From the NCBI RefSeq assembly GCF_029232205.1, contig NZ_CP107255.1:270001-302000 (forward strand): a stretch of DNA of 32,000 bases. Direction: 5' to 3'. Every line of letters starts with the position of its first letter. Position 1 is the stretch's first letter. Shown in pieces: positions 2,701-24,320 of the stretch. The position numbers and the translations under genes are program-made. The notes under the pieces are model-generated. The model was not told the origin of the DNA. It did not search any database and was given only the letters and a program-made list of their open reading frames with translations. This stretch comes from Candidatus Saccharimonadota bacterium (GTDB taxonomy: Archaea; Nanohalarchaeota; Nanosalinia; Nanosalinales; Nanosalinaceae).

Positions 2701-5700
2701 TTGGTCTGTCTGTAGTCAGGACATATCTCTGGTTCTTCGTAGGTGTCGTCTTCTTCGCCGTCGAAGTCACATCCCCCTGCATAATCATTTGGATAAACAG
2801 AGTGGTTTGCGTAGTATGCTTTGTTTGCCTCGTATTCTGGGTGTGAGGTGTTTCTGAAGTGATCGTAGTTTGAGGTGTTTGTTACAGGGTTGAAGTCTGG
2901 ATCTGAGGCCGCATCCACACTCGAATCTGCTGTTTCGTTCAACCAGTACTGCTCTGGTAGGTTGTCGAATCCACAGTCAGATGGTGCCACGAGCACGTTC
3001 TCTCCTTTACTTGGTTCACATTCTCCGTTTATGTCTACATCTCCATCCCCACTACCTACATCCCTGTAAACTGTAAATTCTCTTGATGTGGTGTTGAGAG
3101 GGAATGTTGCCTCGTAGTCGCCGTCCTGGCTTGTGGCCCAAATTTTGATAGTGTAATTCTTTCCGTATTCTTCATTTGAGAAGTTTATCTGGAATTGGGC
3201 CTCAGAGTCATCTCTGTATTCGTATTCTTCCTGCATCATGTCTTTGTTCTGTGAGTCTGTACAGTTGAGGCAGCTTGCGTGGTACTGGCCGTTGAAGCCG
3301 TTTGGTAGGCCTTGTGATGTGTTGAATTCTTTGAAGAATGCTGATACGTTCAGTAGGTCGTTGTCGTCGGTTCCTACTGGGTTCTGTGTTGGGCTGTCCC
3401 ATTCTGCTTCTATTCTTGCTCGGATGTCGTGTCTTTGTTTTACGATGTTTCCTCTTGGGCCTTCGTATTGTCCGTTGAGGTATCCTGGGCTCATTGACCA
3501 TTGGTCGAATGCTGCTGAGCAGTCTAGGAATCCTGTTCTGTATGAGTTTCTTGTGGAGTCGAAGTATTGTTTCTCTACTCCGATTGTTATGAAGTCGTCT
3601 CCTCCTAGGTTGTATCCGTTGCTTGATGGGTTGCCTGGTACTATCCATGTTTCAAGTTTGTTTCTTCCTCCGTGTGCTACTGCGTCGTCCCAGTTGATTA
3701 CTTCTCCTCCGTTTCTTTCTCCGCTGATTCCTCCTCCTTGGCATCCATCTTCGTCTAGGCTCCAGTAGATTCCGTCGAGTTCTGATTCTGTTAGCTGGTT
3801 GCCGTTCATGTCCTGTACTTTGGCTTTCATTGTGAAGTTGTCCATCTGGAAATCGTCTCTTCCGTCTACTGGTTCTTCTATTGTTACGTTGAGGGTTCCT
3901 CGTACTTCTATTGGGATTTCTGTAACTGGGTCTGGTTCGTAGCTGTCCTGTGGGTGGGATGCGTTGATTGTCAGGTTGTAGCTTCCTACTGGGAAGTTTC
4001 CTCTTGGATTCCATTCTGTGTGGGCCAGGTATTCGTCCCACCACTGGTTATCGTTGTCGTTCTGTGCGTTTTCGTATTCTTCTAGATCTACTTCTGCTGT
4101 TGCGATCTCTTCAGATATCTGGCTTCCGTCTGCGCTTGTTCCTGTTATCCAGAAGTGTACTGTTGAGTTTCCTACCTCATATTTTTGCTGTGATCCTTGG
4201 AATGGTGTTGTCACGTTGGCTGCGAGGTACATTGTTTCTGGGTGCTGCCATGGGCCTCCGTTACGGTATACTACGTATTTGTCAAGGTTCTGGTAGGTGT
4301 TGCCTCTTGAGTCTCTTTCCTGATTGTCTCTGTAGTATGCTGAGATGTTTAGGACGTCTGGGATTATCTGTGTCTCATTTACTTCGTTTGGTGAAACTGT
4401 TTCGAAGAAGTCGTCCATGTCGTTGTTGATTATTACTCCTGTCTCGTATGCTCCTGTGTCATATCCTGTGGTATCCCAGAGGTATGAGGCCTCTCCGCTT
4501 GAATCTGTCTGTACGTAGTGCTTGTTGCTGAGGTTTCCTATCCAGAACGTTACGTTGAATCCGGATTTATTGCTCAGTCCTGGGATGTCGATGGTTGTGT
4601 TCAGGTATTTTGTGCTGTCTGGTTCTGCGTATAGGCTTGGGGAGTAGTCTGCAATGCTTACTTTTCTTTTCGCGGTGGTATCTAGTACTCCTATGTCATC
4701 CTGGATGTACTGGTTTTGGGCTACTACGGTGATGTTTCCGTATCCGTATGCGTAGCTTGGGACAATCCATGAGCTTGATTTTGAAGAGCTTATTACTGTT
4801 AGTTCTGTGTCGTTATCCTGGTATCTCCAGGTGTAGCCGATGTCGAGGTTTCCTGCAGATCCTGTTGCTGTTGTGATGCTTGCTCGAAGCGTCTTTTCTT
4901 CGTTGTAGAATAATTCTCCTGTTGGAGGTTCTTCTATCGTTACGTTGGCCTCATCTTTCAGCACAAAGTTTTCTGAGTCATTCTCATTTAGAATTCTTGT
5001 ATCAATGTTGGTCTTGTTTTCGAGCTGGGCTGTTACTGAGTAGTCTCCTGGATTGTAGTTGCTGTCAAGTGTTACTGTGGCCGAGGCCTTTCCTTCTGAG
5101 TCTGTGTCCTTTTCTGCTACTTTGTTCCCGTTGATGTAAAATGTTACGTTGAAGTCTGTCCATGTTTCGTTGATGGTGGATTGGTAGGCCTCTTTGTTGT
5201 CTCCTGTGATTATCTGGCCTGAAAGGTTGTACTGGTAGTCTCCATCGTATGTTCTTACCTTGTCTGCTCCGCCTTCGGTCAGGTTCATCTTGATTACTCT
5301 GTCGATGACAATTGTGTTGATGTCTGAGGCCTGTGAGTAGTATGGATTTTCTACGTCAACTGTCAGGTCTGTGTCACTGGTAAAGTATTCTGGAATTGTC
5401 CATGATCCTGTTTCTCCTGAGTTAATTGTTTTTGTGGTGTCTGCGTCTTCTGCTGTCCAGATGATGTCTGATCCTGGGATGTTTCCTGCGTTTCCACAGC
5501 TGTCTGAAACATTTACGTCGAGGTTTACGTTATCTCCCTGCCTGTAACTTGTTCCACTGGTTGAACTGTTTAGTGGAGATGTAATATTGACACTGGCCTG
5601 TCCGTGAACCTCAATAGTGGAGGAGTCCTGTGTTTCATACAGATCGTACAGCTGGCTGTCAAGCGATGCGTTCACATCTACAGTGTATTCTCCAGGTGTA

Positions 5701-8700
5701 TCTTCACAGACTGTGTTCCAGTTGTAAGTTGCTTCTCCGCTGCTTCCCTCTACTGTATCTTCTGTAAGGCCTTCTATCTGGTATGTGGCATTGAAGTTGT
5801 TCTGCGAGATCTTCGATCCTGATGGATCCTGTAGCTCTGTTGTCAGATCTCCGCTGTTTGTTCTCTGGATTACTTTCCCATCTGAGATGAATTCAGGCCT
5901 TACTACATCTTTCACTAGGAAGTTGTTTGTTCCTGTTGCTGCATCATTGTAACCTGTTTTTGATACTGTTGCTGTCCATTGCTGCTGGCCTACGTTGATC
6001 AGGATGTTTGGATCGTAGTTACATGTGTATGTTCCTGTGTTTTCTGTTGTTGAGCATGTGTTTTCCGTAGGGGTTGAGTAGGAGACTGTTGCTCCGTCGA
6101 CTGTTTCTCCCAGCATGTTTGTCAGGTTTAGGCTTAGGTCTGTGGTTAGAGGGTATCCGTTGTTTCTTGTGACGGAGTTGTTTTCGTAGACACTTGCTGT
6201 TGGTAGAGAGGTTATGTTGAGTGTTCCTTTGACTTCTTTCTGGTATGTGTTGTTGAAGTCTCTGTAACCTGATTTCTCTAGTACTACTCTTACGCTGTTT
6301 GATCCTATGGAGGCCTCGTCTGGTATGTCGAAGCTTCCTGTGAATCCTTCTGAATTTGCTGTGCCTGTGTCCTTGGTATCTCCGTTCCATTTGAGTGTGT
6401 AGGATACGCTGTCTACTGCGTTCTTTCCATCTGTAATGTTAGAGATGTTGTAGTCAAGTTCTGTATCTCCGCTGGACTCATTGTATCTGTAAACTGGTGA
6501 GTCTGTGAGATTGATGTCTGCCTGAAGATTTCCGTTCACATTGAATGTGTCGTTTGATTTAATCTGGTGTACGTATCCTGATTTATTCACTGAGACATTC
6601 CAAGTGTATTCTCCGGCGTCCAGGCTGTTTGATGGGTTGAATGTACAGTTGTATACGTTAAGTGTCTGTGATTCTGTTTCGCATGTTCCTGCCGGAGTGT
6701 TGAAGTTAACGGTTGCTGAGGTGATGTTCTCTCCAAGTCTGTTTGTAACTTCTGCAACGAGTGTTATGTTATCGTCTTGCCTGTATACTGTTTCAGATTG
6801 GCTTGCTACTGATGTGTTAATGCTTCCTTTGACTTCAAGATCTTCGGTGTATGTGAAATCTGTGTAGTCTCCTTTCTGCAGTGTTATTTCCGCAGTGTGG
6901 TTGCCAAGTGTTTCGTCGTCAGGAACATCGAAGCTATCATTTGTACCATCAGAATCTACCTGGGCCTGTCTCTGCTGCTGTCCATCCCAGTCTATGGAGA
7001 ATGTTACATCGTTCAGCGAGTTGTTACCATCGTTAATGTTGTATACTGAGTATTCTACCGTGTTTTGGCCTGTATCATTGTTGTATCTTAGGAGAGGCCC
7101 GTTTACAATGTCGCTTGTTGCCTCTATAGGTGTTCTGACCTTGATGCTTCCGTTCTCATTTTCGTTGTATTCGAAGTAAGGCTTTGATACATCTATGCTC
7201 CAGTTGTAATCTCCTGCGCTAAGCGAGTCTGACGGATCAAATTCACAGGTGTATTCGTTTCCGTCTTCGTAGTTATTCTGGCAGAATCCTGAAGGTGTGT
7301 CGAATGTGACATCTGCAGTTATGTTGCTTCCTGTACTGTCTTTCAGCGTAGCTGTTAGGTTTATTGTATCATTCTGCGCATATACTACGTCACCTGATGT
7401 GAGAGCTCCATCTACTAGGCCATATACATCTACTGTTCTGGTAACTTTCTTTTCGTGGAAGTAAGGTTCGGTGAGTGTGACGTTGAGGTATCTTGGGCCT
7501 ACTTCTGCGCTTTCCTGCACGCTGTAGTCGCTGCTTACTTCGCTGGTGCTTGTTCCTGAGTTAATTCCTTCGAACTGTCCGAAGTCGACTGTGAAGTCTA
7601 CCGGTTGTTCTGTCCCGAATTGATCTTGAATGTTGCTGAAGTTGTATGTGAACGTATTCTGCGGATGATTTGTAGGCCTGTAGGCCTTATCTGGTACTGT
7701 GGTGCTTCCTACAGTTAGTTCTCCCATTAGTGTGAAATTGATGTTTTGACTGGTGTTGGCCTTGTAGTAGTCGTTTCCAGTCATTCTGATACTCCAGTTA
7801 TGGTCGCCTACAGAGTAGTTGAAACTGCTTAGTGTGTAGTTACAGTAGCCGCTGTTTGGAGTTGTGATTGCTCCGCTGTCGATCATTGATCCATCTATTC
7901 TGAACCGGCAGTAGGCCTCATTGGTATCCAGGCTTTCATTGTCTACGAGGTCTTTTACTTCTACTCCGAAGTCGGCTTCTTCCTCTGTCCTGTTGATTTT
8001 CAGATCTCTTCCCTGGCTGTAGATCAGGCCTACATTGTGTTTTTCTACTGTGAAGAATTTTTCTGAGCTGTTTGTTTCACCGTGGATTGCCTGTCCATCG
8101 TTGTAGACATCCTGGTACTCTACCTTGTATCTGATATCGCCTGTCCAGTTCTTGTAGGACTGTAGTTTGAAACTGATGTTTCCGGTTCCTGTTTTCTCTT
8201 GAGTCTTGATCCACTGGGCAGGGGTTTTGGCCCAGATTGATGCGTTGATTTGATCGTTTTCGTTATCTGAGAATGAAGTATTTATTGTGAAGTTTTCTCC
8301 CCAGTATCCCTGATCTGGTGTGTTGCTGAAGCTCTCTAGTACTGGTGCTGCGTTAGTTTTTCCTCCTACTCTGTAAATTGTTTCGTTGTGTTCTGAGTAT
8401 GTTGTTCCTACTTCTTCCTGCGTTACCTTGATGCTGTCAATTTTGCCGTTGCTGTTTTCATCTGATTTACATATCTGGAATGTTGCACCTTCCGCAGTGA
8501 TCTGCTCTTTCGAGCTGCATCCTGTGCTTGACGGAGTGATATCTGTGTATGTTCCATCCTGATCCCAGTCAACTTCGATGAATACGTTGTCTGTTATCTT
8601 GCTTTCATTGACTGCAATTGTTGTTGTGACATTTCTGAATGTTGCTGATGTTTTAGAAGTGTTTCTGAACACTGTCACGTTCTGGTATGATGGTGATCCT

Positions 8701-11700
8701 CTGCTGAAGTTTGATTTAGTCTGGACTACTGGTGTTGCGTTCATTCCTTCTTCGTACCAGATGTAGTCATCTGATCTGATTGGTGTATCTGGGTCTAGGA
8801 TGTATGCTAGGTCTCCTGGCAGAGGAAGGTATGGCGCGCTTATAGAGTACTTTCTACCGTTGAATACTACTTCCTGTGATCCTTCTGTTGAGAGAGTATC
8901 TGGAAGGTAAAGGCTTTCTACTCTTACTGGTACTGCAGGATTGCTGCTGTATGCTACCTGCAGTGCATTGAACATGATGTCTTGGCCTGTTGAAATGCCT
9001 GTTCTCTGGGCCCACTTTGTCACGTCTTCCTGCAGTGTGTACGTATCTGAGAAGTTGTATTCGTATTCTACTCTTGGTTCTGAGACTTCTACTCTTCCGC
9101 CGCTGTCGGATCCAAAGACAATGTCTATTGTACATGTCAAGTTGCTACACTGGCCGAGTTCATCGTTGAATTCGTCTGTGAAGTTGCTGCCTGTAAGGGT
9201 TGTTTCTCCGAAGAAGAGGCCTGTTTCTGAGTATTCGTTGTCTCCGTCGTTTCCTATGTTTACTGTCAGGTTTTCTGGTACTGAGAATAGGTTGATTATG
9301 TCGTTTTCTGAGGTTGTGACTCCTACTTCTTTTCCTGCTACTCTTCCGATCTCTCCTTTACTGAGTTCCTGGATTTGCGAGCTGTATTCGTATGTGTTGA
9401 TTGGTGTGCCATCAGGCTCCATAAGGAGTACTGTTCCATTCCTGAAACCTGCCAGAATGCTGCTTTCTGAGGCCTTCGTAATGTTTCCTGATTCAAGGCT
9501 TTCTACTTTGGAGCTGTAGCTTTTCTCCCAGATCTGTGTGCCGTCTGAGTCGATTGCAATTATTCTCTGGTCTTCTGTTCCTCCGATGATTTCTTTTCCT
9601 GTGCTTCCTCCGCTTACCTGTGTTGTTGTCAGTGATCTGAACCATGTGTCGCCTGTCGGAGGATATCTTTCGATCTGTGTTCCGGAAGAGTCAAGGATTG
9701 CAATCTTGTTCCTTGTTCCTACTACAATTTCGTTTCCTGTTGTCCCGCTTGATGTATCTCCGATTTCAACATCGGTTATCTCGCTGCCTGCAGTGTAATT
9801 CCAGATCTCGGATCCTGTACTGTTTAGTGCTCTTACTGTTCCACCGAACTTGGAAACAACTATTTCATCTCCTCTGTTGGATCCGAAGACGTCTGTTCTT
9901 AGCAGTAGGCCTTCGGAAAGTTTTTGACCCTGTGTGTATGTCGCCGTGCTTGAGCTTGAGTCAAGTAGCAGGTTGTAGCTGTCTGAGCAGCTTTCACAGT
10001 AATATGTAATGTTCTCGTTTTCGTTCAGGTCCTGACCGTCTACCTCTGTCCTTACCCATGTGTATTCGAGGCTGGTATTGGTCCATGTTCTTGCGGCAGA
10101 TCCTGTTCTTCTTTCGTAAGTGTAGTTCTCTGTCTTTACTTCTGAGGTCAGCCCTGAGTTCGTTGAGGTGCCGATGAAGGCGTTTGCCCCTGAGTCTGTG
10201 CTAAGTTCTACAGTGGAATCTGAGTTTAGATCTGATCCACTAACTTCTGTCTTTACCATCGAATAATTGACAGGTATCTGAGTGATTTTCCTCATGAGGC
10301 CTGTTTGATTATCTTCGATCAGATTGTAGCCTGTCGTACATGAGTCACATGTTACTGATAGCGGATTCTGGCCTAGTTCATCTGATGGTAGTTCTGTACC
10401 AGCCCAGTTGTATTCTGTAGATGTATTAGTCCAGACCTGCACCATGTAGTCTCCTGATGTTAGATTGCCTTGGTAGTATGAGTGGCCTGTCGTGCTGGAG
10501 TCCTTTATGAGGTTGAATGAACTGTCTGTAGCACAGGATTCACAGTTGTACGTAACGTTTCTTCCCTGGGCAATATCTGATTTGTTGACTTCTGTCTCTA
10601 CCCAGTCAAAGTCCAGCGATGAATCTGTGCTTACGTTGATCATGTAGTCAAATGGAAGTGGTTCGAGGGCATCGTCTGTAAGTATTTCGGAGTTACCTGA
10701 GGTGGAGTTGTCTCCAAACATTTCGTAGTAGCTACTGCTGTTACAGTTAGAACATTCGTAGAATATTACGTCGTTGTTCAGTGAAGACGTGTCAATTTGA
10801 GTGGAAACCCACTCTCCGCCAGTAGTATTTCCAGTAGTGTTACAGGAAGGTATCTTGCTAGTGTTAATCTGCTTGTTTACGTTTGTACCTGGACCTCCTA
10901 GCTGCAGGTCATAGGAAGCATTTCCTACCGAACACATTTTTGCTGAAACTGTTGCTTCCTGGGCCTGTAGACTTTCGACGTCGAGAGCGGTAAGATCAAA
11001 GTAAGGATCAGGATTTCCGCCTCCATTACATCCAATACATGTTGAGTTGTCGGCCTCTCCGTCATTGATAGATCTTACTACTGTGCTTGTCTCCTGGATC
11101 TCATCTGTGCTGATATTGTATCTATTTCCATTTATGACGAAGTATGGCTGAGATCCTTTCGATCCTTCATAGTTCAATGCTGTTCTGAGGTATACTTTCT
11201 CGGCCTCTATATCGGAAGGGATATTGTAGAATAGGTTGAATGTCGCCTGATTCTGTATGTCTGTCAGGTTTTCACCTGCTCCATCTTCTGCACTGTAGAT
11301 TTCCTTGGCTGTTTCGGTTACTTGCCCTGAGTCAATAGGGTAGGTTGTGCCATTCAACTCGAACTCTAGATCAGAAATCTCTCCACCGATACTGTTGAGT
11401 GCAACTGAGACATACGTGCTGGCATTATCCTGAATAGTAGTATTAACTGGAATCTGATTGTCAGAGACAGGCACTACAGATTCTCCATCTGAACTTGACC
11501 TGTTTACATTTTCACTAGTGGTACTGCTAACTTCTGAAAGATTTACATTGTAGGTGTTTCCATTCAGTTCTATCTGTGCAAGGCCTTCGGCTCCAGGTTC
11601 CTTTGCAAGAGGCAGTTCCAAGTAGTACTTCTCGGCTGAGAAACCTGGTTGCTCGACTTCCATAGTGAGATTTCTTCCATCGAATCGGGCCATACCATCT

Positions 11701-12941
11701 ACGTTTACGTCGTTCAGTCTTCTTTCGGCCATCTCTGTTACTTCGCTGGTGTCGACCGTGTAGTTCTGGCCTCCAACCTCTACTTTCAGCGAGCCCTGAT
11801 CGCTGTACTTGTTGACAGCGGTTTTCAGGTAGACTGTTCCATTTTCCTGTGAAATATTGAATGGATACTCTACGTTTACTGGGCCTCCGCATCCTGTACA
11901 GATCAAGTCTTCTGCTGAGCCATCGTCGTTGGTGTAGAAAATGTTCTGTGATGAGAGTTCTCCGCTGTCTACGTTGAAGTAGCTGCTTGTATCCGATGTG
12001 CTCCATATGAGATTTCCGTTTGTATCCAGAACCTTGACTCCTGCATTTGTTGTTAGAATTATTTCTTCCTTGTTTGTCACGACGTCAATGTTGCCTGATG
12101 AGATTCCGTTCACATCGTTGCTGGAAGTGTAGTTCCAGAGGCTGTTTCCTGAAGAGTCATAGGCCTTGACCTGCGTGCCATCAAGAACCACCATTTCATC
12201 TCTTGAATCTCCCTGGATGTCGGCGAACTCCATTCCTGTTCCTGTCAGTGTGAGAAGAGGCCTGCTCTCAAGGGTTGATAGTTTGATGCTGAAATTCTGT
12301 ACGCTACTGTCGCCAGGAATATCAAAGCTTCGTGTAGTATCTTGATCGAGATTCAGTACTTCTCCTTCGTATCCTGGATCGTAGTTTGTCGAATCTCCTG
12401 AAGGATTACAGGCCCAGAAGTTTGATGAGAAGGAACAAAGTGTCTGAGTTACCAGGCCTTCGTTCAAGGTTATTCTTGTTGAGTCCTGTTCGGCCTTACC
12501 TCTTCCACTGACGGTTCTGGTTACTCCTCCTATACTAATATTGGCCTTGTAGTCTCCGAACTGGTTGACGTCAAATACTATTCTTCCGAAAGAGTTACTC
12601 TGGCCATTCCAGTCTGCAGTAATATCGTTTCCTGCTACTGTGCCCGATGAATCTGTCTCAACCCAGGATCCATCCTGTCGGTATTCAATCCTGTTCAAGC
12701 TGAGGCTATCTTGCCCATCGATAACATCTATATCTAGCTGGCTATTGGTGGTTGAATTAAACTTTATAGTCCAGTTGCCGGCTTCTGAGCCGTCAGAAAT
12801 TCTAAATTGGGAAACTGCATCAGCTATATTTGCATCTGTTTGACCTGCGATGCTTCCAGCCAGTATTAGAGCAAAAGCTATACCTACTACCAGCTTGCCT
12901 AAATCGTCGCTGAGGCTGCCTCTCAGTCTAGAAGTGATCAC
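1..12941 (-). CDS. Giant secreted/cell-surface adhesin-like protein; at least 4313 codons in the window, 3' end cut by the window edge
   Basis: The minus-strand frame with codon first positions at coordinates congruent to 2 mod 3 is open from an in-frame TAA (12975-12977) down to coordinate 1. The only plausible start is GTG at 12939-12941; the first in-frame ATG is at 12233 and would delete the signal-like segment. Hand translation starts (M)ITSRLRGSLSDDLGKLVVGIAFALILAGSIAGQTDANIADAV and is still open at the edge with ...KIDNTAPSITNVRASPSTPVAPGSTVTVKADITDI. Independent check: all seven minus-strand track ORFs in 1-12950 start at coordinates congruent to 0 or 1 mod 3. None lies in this frame although it contains many ATGs, as expected if the frame has no stop in the window. 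Confidence 0.85.
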   Translation of the reverse strand, partial: MITSRLRGSLSDDLGKLVVGIAFALILAGSIAGQTDANIADAVSQFRISDGSEAGNWTIKFNSTTNSQLDIDVIDGQDSLSLNRIEYRQDGSWVETDSSGTVAGNDITADWNGQSNSFGRIVFDVNQFGDYKANISIGGVTRTVSGRGKAEQDSTRITLNEGLVTQTLCSFSSNFWACNPSGDSTNYDPGYEGEVLNLDQDTTRSFDIPGDSSVQNFSIKLSTLESRPLLTLTGTGMEFADIQGDSRDEMVVLDGTQVKAYDSSGNSLWNYTSSNDVNGISSGNIDVVTNKEEIILTTNAGVKVLDTNGNLIWSTSDTSSYFNVDSGELSSQNIFYTNDDGSAEDLICTGCGGPVNVEYPFNISQENGTVYLKTAVNKYSDQGSLKVEVGGQNYTVDTSEVTEMAERRLNDVNVDGMARFDGRNLTMEVEQPGFSAEKYYLELPLAKEPGAEGLAQIELNGNTYNVNLSEVSSTTSENVNRSSSDGESVVPVSDNQIPVNTTIQDNASTYVSVALNSIGGEISDLEFELNGTTYPIDSGQVTETAKEIYSAEDGAGENLTDIQNQATFNLFYNIPSDIEAEKVYLRTALNYEGSKGSQPYFVINGNRYNISTDEIQETSTVVRSINDGEADNSTCIGCNGGGNPDPYFDLTALDVESLQAQEATVSAKMCSVGNASYDLQLGGPGTNVNKQINTSKIPSCNTTGNTTGGEWVSTQIDTSSLNNDVIFYECSNCNSSSYYEMFGDNSTSGNSEILTDDALEPLPFDYMINVSTDSSLDFDWVETEVNKSDIAQGRNVTYNCESCATDSSFNLIKDSSTTGHSYYQGNLTSGDYMVQVWTNTSTEYNWAGTELPSDELGQNPLSVTCDSCTTGYNLIEDNQTGLMRKITQIPVNYSMVKTEVSGSDLNSDSTVELSTDSGANAFIGTSTNSGLTSEVKTENYTYERRTGSAARTWTNTSLEYTWVRTEVDGQDLNENENITYYCESCSDSYNLLLDSSSSTATYTQGQKLSEGLLLRTDVFGSNRGDEIVVSKFGGTVRALNSTGSEIWNYTAGSEITDVEIGDTSSGTTGNEIVVGTRNKIAILDSSGTQIERYPPTGDTWFRSLTTTQVSGGSTGKEIIGGTEDQRIIAIDSDGTQIWEKSYSSKVESLESGNITKASESSILAGFRNGTVLLMEPDGTPINTYEYSSQIQELSKGEIGRVAGKEVGVTTSENDIINLFSVPENLTVNIGNDGDNEYSETGLFFGETTLTGSNFTDEFNDELGQCSNLTCTIDIVFGSDSGGRVEVSEPRVEYEYNFSDTYTLQEDVTKWAQRTGISTGQDIMFNALQVAYSSNPAVPVRVESLYLPDTLSTEGSQEVVFNGRKYSISAPYLPLPGDLAYILDPDTPIRSDDYIWYEEGMNATPVVQTKSNFSRGSPSYQNVTVFRNTSKTSATFRNVTTTIAVNESKITDNVFIEVDWDQDGTYTDITPSSTGCSSKEQITAEGATFQICKSDENSNGKIDSIKVTQEEVGTTYSEHNETIYRVGGKTNAAPVLESFSNTPDQGYWGENFTINTSFSDNENDQINASIWAKTPAQWIKTQEKTGTGNISFKLQSYKNWTGDIRYKVEYQDVYNDGQAIHGETNSSEKFFTVEKHNVGLIYSQGRDLKINRTEEEADFGVEVKDLVDNESLDTNEAYCRFRIDGSMIDSGAITTPNSGYCNYTLSSFNYSVGDHNWSIRMTGNDYYKANTSQNINFTLMGELTVGSTTVPDKAYRPTNHPQNTFTYNFSNIQDQFGTEQPVDFTVDFGQFEGINSGTSTSEVSSDYSVQESAEVGPRYLNVTLTEPYFHEKKVTRTVDVYGLVDGALTSGDVVYAQNDTINLTATLKDSTGSNITADVTFDTPSGFCQNNYEDGNEYTCEFDPSDSLSAGDYNWSIDVSKPYFEYNENENGSIKVRTPIEATSDIVNGPLLRYNNDTGQNTVEYSVYNINDGNNSLNDVTFSIDWDGQQQRQAQVDSDGTNDSFDVPDDETLGNHTAEITLQKGDYTDFTYTEDLEVKGSINTSVASQSETVYRQDDNITLVAEVTNRLGENITSATVNFNTPAGTCETESQTLNVYNCTFNPSNSLDAGEYTWNVSVNKSGYVHQIKSNDTFNVNGNLQADINLTDSPVYRYNESSGDTELDYNISNITDGKNAVDSVSYTLKWNGDTKDTGTANSEGFTGSFDIPDEASIGSNSVRVVLEKSGYRDFNNTYQKEVKGTLNITSLPTASVYENNSVTRNNGYPLTTDLSLNLTNMLGETVDGATVSYSTPTENTCSTTENTGTYTCNYDPNILINVGQQQWTATVSKTGYNDAATGTNNFLVKDVVRPEFISDGKVIQRTNSGDLTTELQDPSGSKISQNNFNATYQIEGLTEDTVEGSSGEATYNWNTVCEDTPGEYTVDVNASLDSQLYDLYETQDSSTIEVHGQASVNITSPLNSSTSGTSYRQGDNVNLDVNVSDSCGNAGNIPGSDIIWTAEDADTTKTINSGETGSWTIPEYFTSDTDLTVDVENPYYSQASDINTIVIDRVIKMNLTEGGADKVRTYDGDYQYNLSGQIITGDNKEAYQSTINETWTDFNVTFYINGNKVAEKDTDSEGKASATVTLDSNYNPGDYSVTAQLENKTNIDTRILNENDSENFVLKDEANVTIEEPPTGELFYNEEKTLRASITTATGSAGNLDIGYTWRYQDNDTELTVISSSKSSSWIVPSYAYGYGNITVVAQNQYIQDDIGVLDTTAKRKVSIADYSPSLYAEPDSTKYLNTTIDIPGLSNKSGFNVTFWIGNLSNKHYVQTDSSGEASYLWDTTGYDTGAYETGVIINNDMDDFFETVSPNEVNETQIIPDVLNISAYYRDNQERDSRGNTYQNLDKYVVYRNGGPWQHPETMYLAANVTTPFQGSQQKYEVGNSTVHFWITGTSADGSQISEEIATAEVDLEEYENAQNDNDNQWWDEYLAHTEWNPRGNFPVGSYNLTINASHPQDSYEPDPVTEIPIEVRGTLNVTIEEPVDGRDDFQMDNFTMKAKVQDMNGNQLTESELDGIYWSLDEDGCQGGGISGERNGGEVINWDDAVAHGGRNKLETWIVPGNPSSNGYNLGGDDFITIGVEKQYFDSTRNSYRTGFLDCSAAFDQWSMSPGYLNGQYEGPRGNIVKQRHDIRARIEAEWDSPTQNPVGTDDNDLLNVSAFFKEFNTSQGLPNGFNGQYHASCLNCTDSQNKDMMQEEYEYRDDSEAQFQINFSNEEYGKNYTIKIWATSQDGDYEATFPLNTTSREFTVYRDVGSGDGDVDINGECEPSKGENVLVAPSDCGFDNLPEQYWLNETADSSVDAASDPDFNPVTNTSNYDHFRNTSHPEYEANKAYYANHSVYPNDYAGGCDFDGEEDDTYEEPEICPDYRQTNVTPEIRNALGDPLSLDVQTSSRQVIVSTDGTDVEFSAEVRDENGDLTQVTLYNQTGATNTSIEAMSTTQAGSSENWRTFTSDAYSLASDGSYRIFAEDDAGLTNKSLQINTVLDPDKVGIATVEYPSERYFQNGANFQVNVTLTNTNESINPGAGITEQEIVSDAKVVLDGTDYPLSYNSTVDKWQTTVTAGGDNSFNVTVTEKSGHNAEITRDYKIDLNNPIVEQTNANTTLTAANQPVNFSAITRDLESGLYATKLLRDSSTVCGNSTFNDAGTDLNQCTVNTPGSTGSYMYRFWARDNAGNLNDSRTITVEVDATPPSVTSTSANDTVVNTNDTVTISSSINDGEGHLDQTVVTSYYKNWDSGQPDAGDQPYVKMLTSSGGVWHDYPTGETEAAICERDNGTYYNTSSDMTWPNARDTCQSNGDHLATIENQEENDLITGQFSGQHWIGYHDPDQDNNNYVWSKTGATGEIYCDNSQFSGSCDVQVNQTQEFAVFANDTLGNINYQTVQVDTDDTKPSITINQPPSSPVTGTITIDASISDSHLDTNSPEYKITKADGTNTSGSLTGGGPWTADVDTTNFEDGNHDVYVVAEDKAGNRNTVKVTPQFDNTPPEITYEENIYNQAWVKVETDTGDTIIVNLRKSGVTTADLSDLDGTTATISVKLATDQVTSTPVLDSLQLNGAQGGLLENLTTETQWKDGNFDGTTPDAQPGSLQIGYLDGDTSAGTINDPGEFEETASEIEKYSGLYQIRNIDLTENPGQLTVDARNIKTGNVQGQTSFNETIYDLLENGDPTTYDYKIEELDSDGTVTDTIVSWTDLGTNGGSSYGAVLDTTTEADGNYQITVEAQDDLGNTNTKTMKFKIDNTAPSITNVRASPSTPVAPGSTVTVKADITDI
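1242..1625 (-). other. C-type lectin-like segment with a QPD...WHD motif; its two halves are in swapped order
   Basis: YYKNWDSGQPDAGDQPYVKMLTSSGGVWHDYPTGETEAAICE resembles the C-terminal CTLD half (W-x-x-G-E/Q-P-N/D ... W-N-D ... C-E). It is followed by TYYNTSSDMTWPNARDTCQSNGDHLATIENQEENDLITGQFSGQHWIGYHDPDQDNNNYVWSKTG, which resembles the N-terminal CTLD half (W-x-x-A-x-x-x-C ... L-A-x-I-x-x-x-E-E-N ... W-I-G ... W-x-W). QPD is at 1593-1601, WHD at 1536-1544 and WIGYHD at 1335-1352. Confidence 0.55.
5895..7735 (-). repeat. Three copies of an alternating two-domain (A-B) Ig-like super-repeat, about 205 aa per unit
   Basis: B-type domains share ..VY-x-Q-x-D-x-I-x-L-x-A-x-(L/V) ... T-C/F-C ... 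Y-x-C-x-F/Y-(D/N)-P-S ... (A/V)-G-(D/E)-Y-x-W: TFDTPSGFCQNNYEDGNEYTCEFDPSDSLSAGDYNWSIDVSK; NFNTPAGTCETESQTLNVYNCTFNPSNSLDAGEYTWNVSVNK; SYSTPTENTCSTTENTGTYTCNYDPNILINVGQQQWTATVSK. A-type domains share Y-R-Y-N ... Y-x-(V/I)-x-N-I-x-D-G-x-N ... F-D-(V/I)-P-D-(D/E) ... E-V-K-G. Confidence 0.6.
9285..9905 (-). other. Beta-propeller-like region 2 of the giant protein (about 4-5 blades)
   Basis: DVFGSNRGDEIVVSKFGGTVRALNSTGSEIWNY / VEIGDTSSGTTGNEIVVGTRNKIAILDSSGTQIERY / TQVSGGSTGKEIIGGTEDQRIIAIDSDGTQIWEK / GNITKASESSILAGFRNGTVLLMEPDGTPINTY / GEIGRVAGKEVGVTTSENDIINLF. The period is about 45 aa, as in FG-GAP or PQQ/BamB-type blades. Confidence 0.5.
9905..10825 (-). repeat. Five tandem modules of about 50-70 aa; four carry a CxxC motif
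   Basis: W-V-x-T-E-V-x-x-x-D leads into ..N-x-T-Y-x-C-E/D-S-C-x-x-x-Y/F-N-L-I/L. Instances: WVSTQIDTSSLNNDVIFYECSNCNSSSYYEMF; WVETEVNKSDIAQGRNVTYNCESCATDSSFNLI; WAGTELPSDELGQNPLSVTCDSCTTGYNLIED; MVKTEVSGSDLNSDSTVELSTDSG (degenerate, no Cys); WVRTEVDGQDLNENENITYYCESCSDSYNLLLD. CxxC codons lie at 10743-10754, 10533-10544, 10338-10349 and 9986-9997. Two further CxxC lie upstream: CTGC at 11889-11900 and CIGC at 11028-11039. Confidence 0.6.
11040..11846 (-). repeat. Four tandem modules of about 70 aa each (protein-level repeat) in the giant protein
   Basis: R1 TVYLKTAVNKYSDQGSLKVEVGGQNYTVDTSEVTEMAERR; R2 KYYLELPLAKEPGAEGLAQIELNGNTYNVNLSEVSSTTSE; R3 TYVSVALNSIGGEISDLEFELNGTTYPIDSGQVTETAKEI; R4 KVYLRTALNYEGSKGSQPYFVINGNRYNISTDEIQETSTV. 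Consensus is Y-L-x-x-A-L-N ... E-L-N-G-x-x-Y-x-V/I ... E-V/I-x-E-T, with a period of about 200-210 nt. Confidence 0.6.
11985..12235 (-). other. Beta-propeller blade-like repeats (FG-GAP/PQQ-like), region 1 of the giant protein
   Basis: FADIQGDSRDEMVVLDGTQVKAYDSSGNSLWNYTSSNDVNGISSGNIDVVTNKEEIILTTNAGVKVLDTNGNLIWSTS. It shows alternating D-x-x-G-D/N ... E-I-I/V-V and V-x-A/L-D-x-x-G-x-x-I/L-W patterns, typical of propeller blades. Confidence 0.45.
12842..12941 (-). other. N-terminal signal peptide or signal-anchor of the giant protein
   Basis: A charged n-region (ITSRLRGSLSDD) is followed by a hydrophobic stretch (LGKLVVGIAFALILAGSIAG) and then polar QTDANIA. This is the classic Sec signal layout. 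Cleavage versus anchoring cannot be decided by eye. Confidence 0.6.
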
Positions 12942-12964
12942 TAAGATATAGTTCCTTAAGCTAG

Positions 12965-12976
12965 TATAAAAAAATT
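12965..12976 (-). promoter_or_regulatory. Candidate TATA box for the giant gene
   Basis: The minus strand reads AATTTTTTTATA, centred about 27 nt upstream of the GTG start. That spacing fits an archaeal TATA-to-TSS distance and a leaderless or near-leaderless mRNA. Confidence 0.3.
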
Positions 12977-13019
12977 AGACTGCCGGCGAAAAACCGCCAG
13001 CGCTACTATTTTCTCCTCA

Positions 13020-13030
13020 TTAATTATAAA
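13020..13030 (+). promoter_or_regulatory. Candidate TATA box for the 1249-aa gene
   Basis: TTAATTATAAA is centred about 38 nt upstream of ATG 13064. A short AGGT lies 5 nt before the ATG. Confidence 0.3.
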
Positions 13031-13063
13031 CGACGCGAGTCAATTCAATATATAGTAGGTTTT

Positions 13064-16000
13064 ATGATTTTCAGCCGCTCTCTACCGACAAAAACAGCTT
13101 TATGGACTAAGGCCTGTATTTTGGTATTGCTGGTGTGTTTCACAGGGCTAGGTGCGGCTTCAGGATTTCAGAATCCTCAAGTATTCTATAATACTACGAC
13201 AGGTCAGGCCACTTTCACGGTAGAGAACGACACCGGCCTTGTGGATCCCGAAATCAGGATTTCATCTCCATATACTGACTGGAGTAGCCAGAATCTGACT
13301 TACTCATCTAACTCTACTTACTCTGTCAATGTGAGTTTTGACAGGCCTAATGGAATTTACTACTACAGATATGTCTCCCAAAATCATGGCTTTCCAGATA
13401 ATCACTTCACTTTTGTAGCAGGCACCAGAAATGATTCTGTCCTCGCGAAAGGCCTGAAGTTCCAGAATCAGAATTCCAGCTCCAGTTTGTGTAGTCCTTA
13501 CGGCGATTTCACGTGCGAGTACGAAAATTATCAGTCGGAGCGAATGATTTCCGCTGTTCAGTATTACAAGGCCACGGCCAATCAGACATATCTTGACAGG
13601 GCCTTAAACTTCTCTTCCAAGCCTTATGGTGAGACTTTTGCTTATCGTTGTCAGACATTTAACTGTGGTACCAAGATTTCAGACAGCGGTGTTCCATCTT
13701 CTGTCAGGCAGGGAGCGCTTATTGAGGGCCTCTGGCAGGTTTACAGTGTTTCAGATAACAGTTCTGTTAGGGATCTGGCCCTAGGCTATTCTCAGGGTTC
13801 TCCTCAGGAGTCCTGTAATGTCTGGAATTCGAGTTATAACTGTACGACTGGTTGGGGTCAGGGAAGAATGGCTCAGGGCTACCTAACTGCATACAGGGTA
13901 ACAGGCAACTCTACTTACTTGAATAAGGCGGAGAAACTTCTTGAGCTTGATTATAACCATTCTCTGTTTGGAAAGGCTCTTACAGAGGCCTATAAAATCA
14001 CTGGTGAAGATAGTTACCGGGAGAGAGCGAGAGAGCTGGCTAGAGAGGTCTCATGTGAGAACTGTTCTGATAATTTCATGAAGAAAGAGTTTTACTGGTC
14101 TGGATTTCTCAGTACCGAGGAGTATGGATACTATAGGAATGGTTATCAGGATATGAACTCTTCTTGCCTGCAGGATGTTAACAGCACCTGTTCTAATCCG
14201 CTGAATCAGAGCAGGGCCTCCAAGTACTTGCTAAAAAAGTACCTTGCTTTCCAGAATAATACTAAGGATGTTTCCAATGGCGGAGTGCTGGAGAAGGATC
14301 GTATAGGAGATCCTGTAGCTGTAACTGCTGATTTTGAGGGGATGGTACAGAATACTTCTGTCCAATTTCGCCAGGTTGGTGGCAACTGGACTAACTGTGA
14401 TATAGGGTGGTTTGGAGATTGTTTCTTAACTGAAAATAACTCTCTTGAGCAGGGAGTCTATGAATACCGTTTTAAGACTCAGAACCTTTCTTTCCCACAG
14501 AATGGGTCTCTCAGGTTTGCTTTGAACTCTAGAAATGATGATTTGTTGGAGGAGACGGAGGCCTTCGCATCTAGTGGGATGGAGACATTGCCTGAGGGCG
14601 AGTACTGTGATTTATCTGATGATCCTCTGGCCTGTGACAATGAGGGGTACCAGGCAAAGATGCTGTCTGGCTATACCCAGATATACAGTAGTTCTGACAG
14701 CTATCAGAGCAGGATTTATGAACTGTTTTACGGGCCTTATGTGGACTTCATTGGCGCCAGTGCGAACTGTGATCCTGTTGATGGTGATTATGATTGTGGT
14801 ACGGGAGGTTATCGTGAGGAGGCCTCGGAGGAGGCTGGTAGTTACAAGCAGGGTAATTTGATTGAGTCCATGTGGGATCTTTACTCCGAGACCGGTAACG
14901 GTACTGTTTATGTAAGAGCTGAGAATTATACGCGAGGTAGTGCGGAGGACTGCGATGTATGGGCCGGTGATTTCAGCTGTGATTCTTCCAAGGGCCAGGC
15001 CGCGATGATTGGTGGTTATTCAGAGGCCTACAGGATTACAGGCAATCAGACCTACAGAGATATCGCAGTCAATCTCTCTGAGGCTGGAGTTCAGGGCTCT
15101 CAGAACAAAGTTCTCGCAGGTGCTCTGTGGGAGGCCTCAGTTCTATACAATAATACTAATTACAGCGATCAGGCATTGAACTGGACGGAGAGCTTGATCA
15201 ATTCCTGTACCTCTGGTGAGTGCACTGCAGATGAGTATACTTCTTCTGTGGCCTTTGCACATGATACCTTTGTATATGGAAATAATGATTCTTATTCTGA
15301 TTATTATCAGGGCTTGGTGGATAATACTACTGGTTCGGGCCAGTGTGGGCCTTGGAAGGAGGATTATGCATGTTCTGCTCCTGATACGCAGGGTATGTTT
15401 ATGGAGACTTTGCAGACAGCGGCTTATTCGGTTCCTATGAAGTTGAAAACTGTTGATAGCTTTAATGTGTCCAGCACAAGTTTGCAGCCTCAGAGTTCTA
15501 CAGATCTAGTTTGTTCTACTAGAAACGTTCTTCAGAATACTACTTTGCGAAATACAACTTTCTCACTGGATTATCCTGGCTCTGCATTTGCGCTTTCGGG
15601 TAATCAGACTCAGGATGTCGGCAATATCCCTTATCAGAACTCCTCGGAGGCCAGCTGGTCTCTTACCGCTGAGCAGTCAGGAACTTTTACTGTTTCATGT
15701 GTGATTTCGTCGGTTAATGGCCTGGATCAGGTGGAGGAGGTTGAGATAGCTGTTTCCGAGCCTGAGCCGGAAGGCGGTGGAGGTTCTGGTGGTCAGGAAG
15801 AGGACTCTGGAGGAGCTATCATTCTGCCGGAGCCTGAACCCGAGCCGGAATACTTGAACTATTCTCTCGAGGACTTCAGAAATATCTCAGATGTTTCCGA
15901 TTATGGCCTGGATGCTGAGAATTATACCTATGAGAGAGCTTCCTGTGGTTCAGCTACAAGAACTGTCTGGCCTTCTAACTCCACACTCGATGTTAATTAC

Positions 16001-16813
16001 TGTGGGGATCTTACTCCGGTAGTCATAGATGAACAGAACAGTACTCTGGTAGAATTATTTAATCAGAGTGTTTCTTTACAGTCTAATTACAGTCTTAACC
16101 TAAGTAATTATTCTGCGCCGGCCTTGCTTGAAAGAGAGTTGAAGGTTCTGGATGTAAACAGTACTGTTGATTCCATTGATCTTTCAGGTAATGGAAGTGC
16201 TCTTGTATCCTCAAAGCTAAACAGGCCTGTTATGTGTACGGTTTCCAGAAATGGCCGTGAGGTTTACTCGGAATTTACATCTGATTTAAGCTATGAGGTA
16301 GAATTGGAGGATGGCCTGAACAGTATTTCTGTTGATTGTGGTGGGGAGGTTGAGAACTTTAATGTCGAGTATGACTCAGAGGTTCCACGTGAGGATGAAG
16401 GTTCCAGCAGGTTTATTGTTGCGGCATTGCTGAGCCTGGTTGTAGCAACCCTGTTTTTCAGAAGCCCTATCTTATTTGTCAAGAACTCTCTGTTGTTCAG
16501 ATTTTATTCAAGAAGATTCAGACAGTCTATTTACCATGAGAGTCCGGCAAAGGCCCTAGAGTACTATAATGAGATGAAGAACTACTCTAATCATGTGTCT
16601 GAGGATCTTTTCTATTCTGAGATCAGTTTGATGAGAGGCGTCCAGTTGTATCTTGCTATGGACTTGATTAAGGAAGGTATTGAGGATGATATTGTCAATG
16701 CGTTCGGTGAGGATATTGAGGGTATTGTCAACAGGTTTATGGAGAGGTCTGATAATGATCATTTGCAGAAGATGTTGAATAGTAAGCTTGAGGAGATCAA
16801 GGGCAGTGCATAG
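13064..16813 (+). CDS. Sequon-rich type I membrane surface protein (1249 aa) with an internally duplicated ectodomain
   Basis: Track ORF. Signal-like N-terminus: KTALWTKACILVLLVCFTGLGAASG. The ectodomain has two homologous halves (about aa 35-400 and 405-790), then an Ig-like region, a PEPEPE/GGGGSGG linker (15755-15850), more beta-rich sequence, and one TM helix RFIVAALLSLVVATLFF (16409-16459). A helical cytoplasmic tail of about 115 aa follows. Confidence 0.85.
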   Translation: MIFSRSLPTKTALWTKACILVLLVCFTGLGAASGFQNPQVFYNTTTGQATFTVENDTGLVDPEIRISSPYTDWSSQNLTYSSNSTYSVNVSFDRPNGIYYYRYVSQNHGFPDNHFTFVAGTRNDSVLAKGLKFQNQNSSSSLCSPYGDFTCEYENYQSERMISAVQYYKATANQTYLDRALNFSSKPYGETFAYRCQTFNCGTKISDSGVPSSVRQGALIEGLWQVYSVSDNSSVRDLALGYSQGSPQESCNVWNSSYNCTTGWGQGRMAQGYLTAYRVTGNSTYLNKAEKLLELDYNHSLFGKALTEAYKITGEDSYRERARELAREVSCENCSDNFMKKEFYWSGFLSTEEYGYYRNGYQDMNSSCLQDVNSTCSNPLNQSRASKYLLKKYLAFQNNTKDVSNGGVLEKDRIGDPVAVTADFEGMVQNTSVQFRQVGGNWTNCDIGWFGDCFLTENNSLEQGVYEYRFKTQNLSFPQNGSLRFALNSRNDDLLEETEAFASSGMETLPEGEYCDLSDDPLACDNEGYQAKMLSGYTQIYSSSDSYQSRIYELFYGPYVDFIGASANCDPVDGDYDCGTGGYREEASEEAGSYKQGNLIESMWDLYSETGNGTVYVRAENYTRGSAEDCDVWAGDFSCDSSKGQAAMIGGYSEAYRITGNQTYRDIAVNLSEAGVQGSQNKVLAGALWEASVLYNNTNYSDQALNWTESLINSCTSGECTADEYTSSVAFAHDTFVYGNNDSYSDYYQGLVDNTTGSGQCGPWKEDYACSAPDTQGMFMETLQTAAYSVPMKLKTVDSFNVSSTSLQPQSSTDLVCSTRNVLQNTTLRNTTFSLDYPGSAFALSGNQTQDVGNIPYQNSSEASWSLTAEQSGTFTVSCVISSVNGLDQVEEVEIAVSEPEPEGGGGSGGQEEDSGGAIILPEPEPEPEYLNYSLEDFRNISDVSDYGLDAENYTYERASCGSATRTVWPSNSTLDVNYCGDLTPVVIDEQNSTLVELFNQSVSLQSNYSLNLSNYSAPALLERELKVLDVNSTVDSIDLSGNGSALVSSKLNRPVMCTVSRNGREVYSEFTSDLSYEVELEDGLNSISVDCGGEVENFNVEYDSEVPREDEGSSRFIVAALLSLVVATLFFRSPILFVKNSLLFRFYSRRFRQSIYHESPAKALEYYNEMKNYSNHVSEDLFYSEISLMRGVQLYLAMDLIKEGIEDDIVNAFGEDIEGIVNRFMERSDNDHLQKMLNSKLEEIKGSA

Positions 16814-19008: not shown

Positions 19009-19039
19009 GGTGAGAATTTGGGCCTCAAGAAATATGTAG

Positions 19040-20797: not shown

Positions 20798-20855
20798 CTT
20801 TTTACACCTGAAATAGGTTTTCTGGTGAAATTTTAAGAAGGATATAGTTGGGGTT

Positions 20856-21242: not shown

Positions 21243-21365
21243 AATATGTCTCTATTCCTAAGTGATAAAAATTTACACTGGGGGAAAAATGAGGGGTCAT
21301 GAAGAAATAGGTTTTGTAAGGATGAAGAATAGGAGAAAATGAAGAATAAGGGTTGAGAACTGGTT

Positions 21366-21521: not shown

Positions 21522-21525
21522 TGTT

Positions 21526-21696: not shown

Positions 21697-21722
21697 TACC
21701 ATTTTTGATCACTGATGGGGGT

Positions 21723-22100: not shown

Positions 22101-22187
22101 TTTTGGATTACCTCTCTATGAATAGATTTCATCAAGGTTGTAAAACACAAAGAGAAGAGAACTTTTTTATACCCGGTCCTTTCGTAA

Positions 22188-22418: not shown

Positions 22419-22443
22419 ATGGTTATCTCCTGGCCTAGTGTTT

Positions 22444-24068: not shown

Positions 24069-24107
24069 ACACGGCTATTTAAAGACAAATATTAAATACG
24101 GCTCGAT

Positions 24108-24317: not shown

Positions 24318-24320
24318 TTT

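Follow-up and report, generated by a model that had tools for sequence, protein, structure and literature searches.

The window analysed here, a 32,000-nucleotide stretch of contig NZ_CP107255.1 (positions 270,001 to 302,000 of the forward strand), carries the gene for a 1249-amino-acid (aa) protein, hereafter the double-toroid protein. It can be described with confidence as a surface-anchored molecule with two heads, each composed of a beta-sandwich and a mini (alpha/alpha)6 toroid, on an Ig-like stalk with a conserved tail. Its gene is kept next to genes for a giant SPEARE-type surface protein and HerA/VirB4-like ATPases, and because these partners stay together despite changed order and orientation, the association is good evidence for a functional link. 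The double-toroid protein likely acts together with the SPEARE-type giant and the associated ATPases, and looks like an overlooked part of the SPEARE host-contact apparatus. In the literature, host contact is the role given to the SPEARE giant (Hamm et al. 2019; Front Microbiol 2023, PMC10266531). These main SPEARE publications treat the giant gene and, once, also the downstream ATPase gene, and leave the double-toroid gene undiscussed. By the present analysis, the SPEARE locus, so far pictured as a giant gene with an ATPase gene, is a three- or four-gene cassette.

Internal duplication and hairpin repeat

A preliminary description of the window, made from the letters alone, had proposed that two halves of the protein align over their whole length and that a Cys-bracketed hairpin unit recurs within each half. 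The region that it covered (13166-15433) corresponds to aa 35-790, which is the two-module region. When aa 1-440 was compared with aa 441-900 by BLASTP, aa 97-322 paired with aa 464-704 (30% identity over 244 columns, E=2e-25). The proposed duplication is thus borne out, and the three example pairs given for it all fall inside this alignment. Weaker, out-of-register matches in the same comparison (E=0.003 and 0.007) may point to an additional, shorter repeat. The two halves of seven orthologues (m1, aa 36-404; m2, aa 405-792 in the double-toroid protein) were combined into a 14-module alignment, in which all modules align end to end, and the resulting profile of 388 positions gives two nearly full-length matches in each family member. 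Two full modules were present in 52 of the 52 long family members tested. In 33 of these 52, the first and second domains score best with the m1 and m2 models, respectively, consistent with one ancient duplication.

The module alignment was further split into six hairpin units (U1-U6), which were compared pairwise by hhalign. U1, U2, U3, U4 and U6 match one another at 94-99%, except for U1-U4 (79%) and U4-U6 (3%), whereas U5 is weaker, with 90% to U3 and 1-49% to the other units. These matches indicate that each half consists of six diverged copies of one hairpin unit, in keeping with the recurrent unit claimed earlier.

Predicted fold of the modules

The structure of module 1 (aa 36-404) was predicted by AlphaFold2 (AF2) with the 14-row alignment, and the fold of module 2 was assigned by homology to module 1. 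The model (predicted local distance difference test, pLDDT, 82.2; predicted template-modelling score 0.83) contains a beta-sandwich and, after it, six helical hairpins, whose 12 helices lie at model residues 89-100, 119-136, 139-150, 177-195, 198-209, 228-245, 248-257, 265-278, 281-293, 299-316, 319-329 and 344-359. Two-residue turns, which carry the T-G-N-x-T-Y motif, join helices 2-3, 4-5, 6-7, 8-9 and 10-11, and long connections with Cys loops precede helices 2, 4, 6, 10 and 12.

A Foldseek search of the PDB with the module 1 model returned 65 matches at E<=1e-3, and the best 50 of the 65 are almost all (alpha/alpha)6 proteins, including polysaccharide lyase, GH9, GH76, cellobiose 2-epimerase and mannose isomerase, with template-modelling (TM) scores of ~0.45-0.55 over ~350-400 columns. 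The top match is the polysaccharide lyase BACCELL_00875 (5no8; 9e-8), followed by GH9 endoglucanases, likewise with an Ig-like domain at the N-terminus; TM-scores of ~0.5 are reached by GH76 mannanases and cellobiose 2-epimerases. Complement C5, which combines macroglobulin (MG) domains with a thioester-containing domain (TED) toroid, is also listed. In Pfam, partial matches were obtained solely to six-hairpin families, namely the GH127 catalytic domain, the C5-epimerase C-terminal domain, GH88 and GH76. The GH127_cat match (PF07944; 6.7e-9, 35.7 bits, above the gathering cut-off) lies at aa 217-294 and covers profile positions 128-205 of 376 only, rather than the whole domain. Among the 14 modules, partial matches to GH127 were found in 10 and to C5-epimerase in 8. 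Searches of PDB sequences with phmmer and with the 14-module profile gave no significant match, the best being GH88 at E=0.2. The earlier suggestion that the hairpins are reminiscent of (alpha/alpha)-toroid proteins is therefore supported by the partial Pfam matches, by the six hairpins of the predicted model and by the resemblance of this model to solved (alpha/alpha)6 enzymes.

Cysteine loops, sequons and conserved residues

The Cys pairs of module 1 are C143/C151, C196/C201, C251/C260, C331/C334 and C368/C376, and those of module 2 are C515/C524, C569/C578, C630/C639, C715/C720 and C761/C770. Units 1, 3 and 6 have the form C-x7-8-C and unit 2 has C-x4-8-C; unit 5 has C-x2-C in module 1 and C-x4-C in module 2, and unit 4 has no Cys pair in either module. 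Accordingly, the claim that every hairpin is preceded by a Cys loop stands for five of the six hairpins per module and fails for unit 4. Across 56 diverse homologues, to which the conservation values below also refer unless stated otherwise, the hairpin Cys pairs are 89-100% conserved. The ectodomain contains 28 Cys, 22 of them within 9 residues of a partner, and the C-x(2-8)-C pairs would most simply be disulfides.

N-x-S/T sequons are likewise abundant. The ectodomain has 49, compared with 15.4 +/- 3.4 in composition-preserving shuffles (maximum 29 among 2000 shuffles), and the sequon density is 4.0 per 100 aa as against 0-1.5 in the cytoplasmic neighbours, which have almost no Cys. The proposal that the conserved turn is itself a sequon agrees with the alignment, since sequons in the T-G-N-x-T-Y turn are kept at N173 (42/56 homologues), N232 (36/56) and N282 (41/56), with the qualification that the N/D and T/Y positions of the turn also belong to the general toroid hairpin motif.

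The residues invariant across the 14 modules are Cys, three Gln (Q157, Q216 and Q382), G, A, V-W, M, T, L and P. In the larger set of homologues, the Gln positions are conserved at 98% (Q216), 96% (Q530), 92% (Q382), 85% (Q776), 83% (Q266) and 80% (Q157). A conserved acidic catalytic pair, which a glycan-processing module might have had, is missing: every D or E position varies among the 14 modules, and the best acidic positions, E154/E527 in the motif C-x-x-E-x-x-Q, reach 71-76%. The Arg preceding the unit-2 Gln (R215/K595) is conserved at 78-80%, and several aromatic positions exceed 90%, with Y242 and Y277 near-invariant. His is rare in the protein (0.6%). When the AF2 secondary structure and the conservation are combined, each conserved Gln occupies the first turn of the helix after a Cys loop. 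The polar residues conserved best in the family stand at these helix starts: units 1, 2, 3 and 6 each have Gln, to which unit 1 adds a Glu and unit 2 an Arg, and conserved aromatic residues are close by.

Stalk, membrane anchor and surface display

A hydrophobic N-terminus (aa 11-36) and one transmembrane helix predict a type-I topology with a tail of ~110 aa. The AF2 model of the C-terminal part has a pLDDT of 67, and Foldseek matched it to generic Ig, MG and FnIII-type sandwiches only. N821, in the Ig-like domain, is invariant in the 56 sequences, C961, R966, C980 and D989 are conserved in the poorly modelled middle (aa 901-1029), and R1133, F1152, Y1196, K1241 and E1244 are conserved among orthologues in the C-terminal region. 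The display on the cell surface that had been supposed for the protein is consistent with the signal-like N-terminus, the single C-terminal transmembrane helix, the threefold enrichment of sequons and the paired Cys. Judging from these sequence features, the double-toroid protein is probably N-glycosylated and disulfide-stapled.

Linkage to the giant SPEARE-type gene and ATPase genes

The divergent neighbour of the double-toroid gene in the window is a giant frame that runs off the window. Its likely start is the GTG at 12943-12941, and there is no ATG near its N-terminus. Pfam matches in this frame are Lectin_C at residues 3837-3895 (window about 1290-1466) and Big_13 near residues 4261-4293, and the frame is enriched in Cys (44) and in sequons (144 versus about 79 expected). 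In Ca. Nanohalovita haloferacivicina BNXNv, a nanohaloarchaeon that has been cultivated and has a genome of 45.0% GC, the giant surface protein BNXNv_0298 is 8,880 aa long. The giant frame of the window is the N-terminal half of BNXNv_0298, and the double-toroid gene is probably the neighbour of BNXNv_0298. DUF87/HerA/ResIII-type domains have been published for the cytoplasmic end of SPEARE and for the adjoining ATPase gene, and a secretion-like role has been proposed for the cassette in one paper.

Twenty-two loci were informative, i.e., their relevant flank was available, and at 20 of them the double-toroid gene adjoins at least one of two partners, a giant SPEARE-type gene and a HerA/VirB4-like ATPase gene. 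These comprise 11 loci with a divergent giant homologue (the window and 10 others), one with a divergent transmembrane ATPase and eight co-directional cassettes. The divergent giant is colinear from its N-terminus with that of the window at L002-L006, L009, L012 and L021 (strain SG9), and it matches with an offset at L015 (= L034; giant at least 3,404 aa) and L017. At L022, the divergent neighbour is a transmembrane protein with a HerA-like ATPase domain. The co-directional cassettes are listed in the table; the C-termini of their giants give DUF87/HerA matches, and ResIII matches also in three of the four tested. The association at L028 is partial.

A conserved protein of ~350-480 aa, K/E-rich, coiled-coil-like and without a transmembrane helix, is encoded between the HerA-like ATPase and toroid genes in co-directional cassettes (see table), and no separate counterpart of it was seen in nanohaloarchaeal loci. 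One metagenome-assembled genome (MAG), which carries the unverified label 'uncultured Methanosarcinales archaeon', has two complete cassettes, L008/L027 (one gene, contig CAYYOI010000007.1) and L018 (contig CAYYOI010000004.1). At both L008 and L018, a large transmembrane protein with a HerA-like ATPase domain is ~47-49% identical, in its ATPase part, to the next ATPase of ~670 aa, which suggests that the two are paralogues.

Family and distribution

A word-indexed protein search retrieved seven family proteins, one of them labelled Nanohaloarchaea, and an exhaustive profile search over 1.84 billion cluster representatives retrieved 96 at E<=1e-3, 67 of them at E<=1e-30; the weak tail of the match list consists of other toroid-like proteins. 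Nearly all full-length members have two matched modules in 1,200-2,230 aa. Nearly all members also have 22-32 Cys, most of them closely paired, and a density of 2-5.5 sequons per 100 aa. According to a simple hydropathy scan of the long homologues, most members have a hydrophobic N-terminus, a C-terminal transmembrane helix and a tail of ~80-330 aa. There is usually one copy per locus, and the architecture is kept across lineages. Many members are not acidic, which means that the family extends beyond halophiles.

When GTDB species genomes were searched with back-translated motifs, 21 loci were obtained and hmmsearch confirmed 18 of them; the other three, in a cyanobacterium, Algoriphagus and a Bacteroidales MAG, were rejected as chance matches. 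The family occurs in MAGs labelled Nanohaloarchaea (including strain SG9), Woesearchaeota and Aenigmatarchaeota, and also in MAGs with the 'uncultured Methanosarcinales archaeon' label mentioned above. It has no model of its own in Pfam or NCBIfam, and databases already attach the Pfam GH127 label to these proteins. No description of the family was found in the literature on DPANN toroids or Nanohaloarchaeota GH127. Distant relatives of the hairpin unit occur in proteins built differently: in P0078 (1,570 aa) the toroid hairpins come after a thioredoxin domain, P0088 (1,188 aa) contains 48 Cys, with 18 close pairs, and is matched in six stretches, and P0080 is a further example.

Proposed function and alternatives

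We give about an even chance to the reading that the double-toroid protein is a glycosylated, disulfide-stapled ectodomain subunit of the host-contact apparatus, with two glycan-recognition heads facing the host envelope. One face of each toroid would present the tight T-G-N-x-T-Y turns, often with N-glycan sequons, and the opposite face the long loops, five of six closed by a Cys pair. The Cys-loop face would form a non-catalytic or weakly catalytic carbohydrate-binding funnel lined by the conserved Gln residues. In view of the fixed cassette membership (a giant adhesin-ATPase, a second HerA/VirB4-like ATPase and often the coiled-coil protein), we propose that the double-toroid protein lies in the same membrane complex as the giant protein, through its transmembrane helix and tail, and during attachment the two heads would be offered to S-layer glycans or polysaccharide of the host envelope. 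Glycan binding is favoured over catalysis because there is neither an invariant acidic residue nor a thioester motif, and the Gln/Glu/Arg/aromatic pattern would fit a sugar-binding site better than a classical two-carboxylate glycosidase. The earlier idea of a module directed at the envelope of a partner cell is indirectly supported by the linkage to giant SPEARE-type host-contact genes. The disulfides, the glycosylation, glycan binding, the host target and the physical association with the giant protein are all inferred.

Several points weigh against this reading. Gene linkage indicates a functional connection but not which function, and at L024, a second copy in a Woesearchaeota MAG, the gene adjoins CorA and transglutaminase genes instead. 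The funnel, the orientation of its residues and the disulfide geometry are only predicted, the alignment used for AF2 is shallow (14 rows), and the Foldseek TM-scores are only about 0.5. Moreover, some (alpha/alpha) toroids, such as TED domains and LanC-like proteins, have functions that involve other proteins or small molecules, and the moderately conserved set of Glu, Arg and Tyr leaves catalysis possible.

If catalysis were the function, the toroids would be active carbohydrate enzymes (hydrolase, lyase or epimerase) that open or remodel host or own S-layer glycans or envelope polysaccharide, by which the giant protein would reach the host membrane, as an archaeal counterpart of the wall-opening enzymes of bacterial secretion systems. 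All sequence and structure neighbours are indeed enzyme families (GH127, GH88, GH76 and C5-epimerase by sequence; lyase, GH9, GH76 and epimerases by Foldseek), E154/E527 together with R215/K595 and Y242/Y277 could serve a lyase-type or unusual mechanism, and the published proposal of a secretion-like cassette is in line with such a role. We nevertheless consider an enzyme unlikely, as no acidic residue is invariant in the 14 modules, the adjacent Asp pair of GH76 is absent from both the 14-module and the 56-sequence alignments, the GH127 match is limited to 78 of 376 profile positions, the rarity of His speaks against AGE-type epimerases, and the same Gln and aromatic pattern recurs in both copies, which is more typical of binding sites. 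Still less probable is a wider proposal, in which four genes encode a widespread archaeal machine for cell contact: the giant adhesin-ATPase, the second HerA/VirB4-like ATPase, the coiled-coil protein and the double-toroid protein, the last of which would recognise and open the envelope. The mini-toroids would then be a new catalytic family, e.g., a lyase or hydrolase acting on uronic-acid-rich S-layer glycans and locally breaching the host glycoprotein envelope, in a role analogous to that of the dedicated wall-lytic enzymes of bacterial secretion systems.

A structural or assembly subunit (part of the envelope or of an S-layer-like structure, or else a scaffold or chaperone of the giant protein), whose toroids contact proteins and not glycans, is a doubtful alternative, although the sequon load, the paired Cys, the Ig-like stalk and the C-terminal anchor resemble archaeal surface-layer glycoproteins. 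The conserved cytoplasmic tail and the coiled-coil neighbours suggest a role in a membrane complex, the usual single copy per locus and the architecture conserved across lineages would suit such a component, and a regular S-layer-like surface has been published for nanohaloarchaeal cells. However, the residues best kept between highly divergent lineages are polar Gln, Glu and Arg and aromatics at one face, which look more like a ligand site than a lattice, and linkage to giant and ATPase genes is not expected of a housekeeping S-layer gene. The resemblance to alpha2-macroglobulin and complement raises another reading, in which a TED toroid attaches the protein covalently to its target. For both models the Foldseek matches include complement C5 and C3, TEP1r, cobra venom factor and Salmonella alpha2-macroglobulin, all of which pair MG-like sandwiches with a TED toroid, and a Cys stands 6 residues ahead of the conserved Gln in units 1, 3 and 6; yet the Cys residues form close pairs, consistent with disulfides, and the matches are no better than those to glycosidases. 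A CGEQ, C[GAS]EQ or C.EQ motif was found in 0 of 60 family members, and this reading, which we regard as highly improbable, was rejected.

The SPEARE-type giants, the main candidates for host recognition and attachment in DPANN archaea, are ~9,000 aa long and very hard to handle experimentally. The two compact modules of ~370 aa should be expressible and would thus offer an entry point for binding assays, structures, localisation antibodies and host-range comparison. Apart from function, they represent a new, unusually regular, Cys-stapled version of the (alpha/alpha)6 fold.

Relation to known toroid proteins and SPEARE giants

The fold itself is known, and the double-toroid family is a distinct, undescribed six-hairpin variant that lies outside any glycosidase family whose defining features could be tested. 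It is considered distinct on account of its compact ring with a visible repeat, the Cys-bracketed loops, the obligatory duplication, the membrane anchor and, above all, the cassette linkage. With the six-hairpin (alpha/alpha)6 superfamily (PF07944, GH88, GH76, C5-epimerase and cellobiose 2-epimerase), the modules have in common the 12 helices in six hairpins and the hairpin-turn signature aromatic-x-x-T-G-[ND]-x-x-Y-x-x-x-A. The ring of the superfamily measures 340-400 aa, whereas that of a double-toroid module measures ~280 aa, and the double-toroid protein differs further in its sequence-detectable six-fold repeat, tandem duplication, Cys-closed loops (5/6), membrane anchor and richness in sequons. 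The catalytic residues of the six-hairpin families are not recognisable in it, and its matches span one or two hairpins of the Pfam models. GH127 (HypBA1) has a catalytic Cys nucleophile, a Glu acid/base and a Cys3-Glu zinc site; all conserved Cys of the double-toroid family are close pairs in loops. The GH76 alpha-1,6-mannanases use adjacent Asp-Asp (the inactive variants in the PDB are of the D124/D125 and D136/D137 type), and the alignments of the double-toroid family show no invariant or highly conserved D-D.

GH9 (AaCel9A and CelD) and BACCELL_00875, the best Foldseek matches (9e-8 to 1e-5), have the same order of domains, with an N-terminal beta-sandwich packed before the (alpha/alpha)6 barrel. 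The identity is 10-12%, with TM-scores of 0.3-0.5, a large root-mean-square deviation and no common catalytic motif found, and these proteins are soluble single-module enzymes, unlike the double-toroid protein. The alpha2-macroglobulin/complement proteins are likewise extracellular and likewise combine beta-sandwiches with an alpha/alpha toroid, with Foldseek similarity, but the double-toroid protein lacks the thioester motif, has another domain order and has its module duplicated. The SPEARE giants share with it the cassette, the lineages and the predicted topology (signal peptide, large glycosylated ectodomain, one transmembrane helix and a tail); the double-toroid protein is a separate, much smaller protein with another ectodomain fold and without an ATPase domain. 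In the toroids of terpenoid cyclases and prenyltransferases, which are cytoplasmic or membrane enzymes without Cys loops, the hairpins keep a QW-type repeat motif that includes a conserved Gln. This is an analogy only, and no sequence or Foldseek match to these toroids was obtained.

Gene model, feature coordinates and genomic surroundings

Features of the double-toroid locus in the window and cassette features at other loci (L numbers)
Feature	Position or locus	Strand	Basis
Double-toroid surface protein gene, 1249 aa	13064..16813	+	Open reading frame list; database protein P0001 100% identical
Signal-peptide-like N-terminus, aa 1-34	13064..13165	+	Hydropathy peak aa 11-36; orthologues align through it
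Module 1 beta-sandwich, aa 36-122	13169..13429	+	AF2 strands, model residues 5-84, pLDDT ~71-87; homologous to aa 405-495
Module 1 mini (alpha/alpha)6 toroid, aa 123-404, 12 helices, five Cys loops	13430..14275	+	AF2, Foldseek, Pfam, hhalign
Module 2 beta-sandwich, aa 405-495, extra Cys pair C445/C453	14276..14548	+	Aligns with module 1
Module 2 mini (alpha/alpha)6 toroid, aa 496-792, five Cys loops	14549..15439	+	Homology to module 1; second profile match
Ig-like beta-sandwich, aa 793-900, C817/C879	15440..15763	+	AF2 pLDDT ~85-91
Acidic and Gly/Ser-rich linker and poorly modelled middle, aa 901-1029	15764..16150	+	pLDDT <50
Membrane-proximal beta-sandwich, aa 1030-1105, C1058/C1092	16151..16378	+	AF2 pLDDT ~82-88
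Single transmembrane helix, aa 1117-1139	16412..16480	+	Kyte-Doolittle peak; helical in AF2
Conserved helical cytoplasmic tail, aa 1140-1249	16481..16810	+	AF2 helices pLDDT ~59-84
A/T-rich divergent intergenic region, 120 bp, between giant and double-toroid genes	12944..13063	.	Sequence
Giant SPEARE-type surface protein, N-terminal 4,313+ aa, runs off window	3..12943	-	Open frame 3..12974
Co-directional giant 9,271 aa, ATPase 678 aa, toroid gene	L030
Co-directional giant 8,354 aa, ATPase 663 aa, 393-aa protein, toroid gene	L032
Co-directional giant 9,407 aa, ATPase 664 aa, toroid gene	L033
Co-directional giant at least 2,773 aa, ATPase 687 aa, 483-aa protein, toroid gene	L031
Same co-directional giant-ATPase-toroid order	L029, L018, L008
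Part of co-directional order	L010
Coiled-coil-like protein gene	L018 5612-6652; L008 825-1967; L029 4022-5167; L031 8548-9999; L032 8789-9970
Regions homologous to coiled-coil-like protein	L010 871-2985; L028 180-1760

The ATG at 13064 as the start of the double-toroid gene is backed by the N-termini of six orthologues. The public gene call P0001 (1226 aa) begins at the GTG at 13133 (residue 24) and loses the signal-peptide-like segment.

The window is archaeal, with Nre, aIF5B, ribosomal protein S2, enolase, PAC2, aIF2-alpha and a protein matching both the small and the large primase subunit among the neighbouring genes. Its GC content is 0.43-0.47, and no tRNA and no Rfam RNA were found within it. 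A DUF7544 gene, which encodes an 8-transmembrane-like membrane protein, lies on the same strand 40 bp downstream of the double-toroid gene. It was rejected as a member of the system, since it is absent at other loci and its product has no similarity to the cassette proteins of other lineages. At the other nanohaloarchaeal loci L001-L006, Rpb6, PAC2, (Nop10) and aIF2-alpha directly follow the double-toroid gene, whereas in the window ~8.8 kb (16853-25442), containing DUF7544, Nre, aIF5B, small ribosomal protein genes, S2 and enolase, separates the gene from the Rpb6/PAC2/aIF2-alpha set. This segment looks like a local rearrangement or insertion.

Elsewhere in the window, 22444-23247 (-) encodes a low-complexity protein of 267 aa that is very rich in Q/N/E, without Cys and without a Pfam match. 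At 29318-30724 (-), one protein of 468 aa matches both the primase small subunit (PF01896) and the large subunit (PF04104) and appears to be a fused PriS-PriL primase; primase homologues of 454-471 aa are found at the same position in related loci. The AT skew of the + strand is ~-0.4 wherever the genes of the window run on the - strand, and across the double-toroid gene it is only -0.07 to -0.11 and not the mirror value. Therefore, the coding strand of the double-toroid gene is far less A-over-T biased than those of its neighbours, which may be caused by its Ser/Tyr/Phe/Cys-rich composition.

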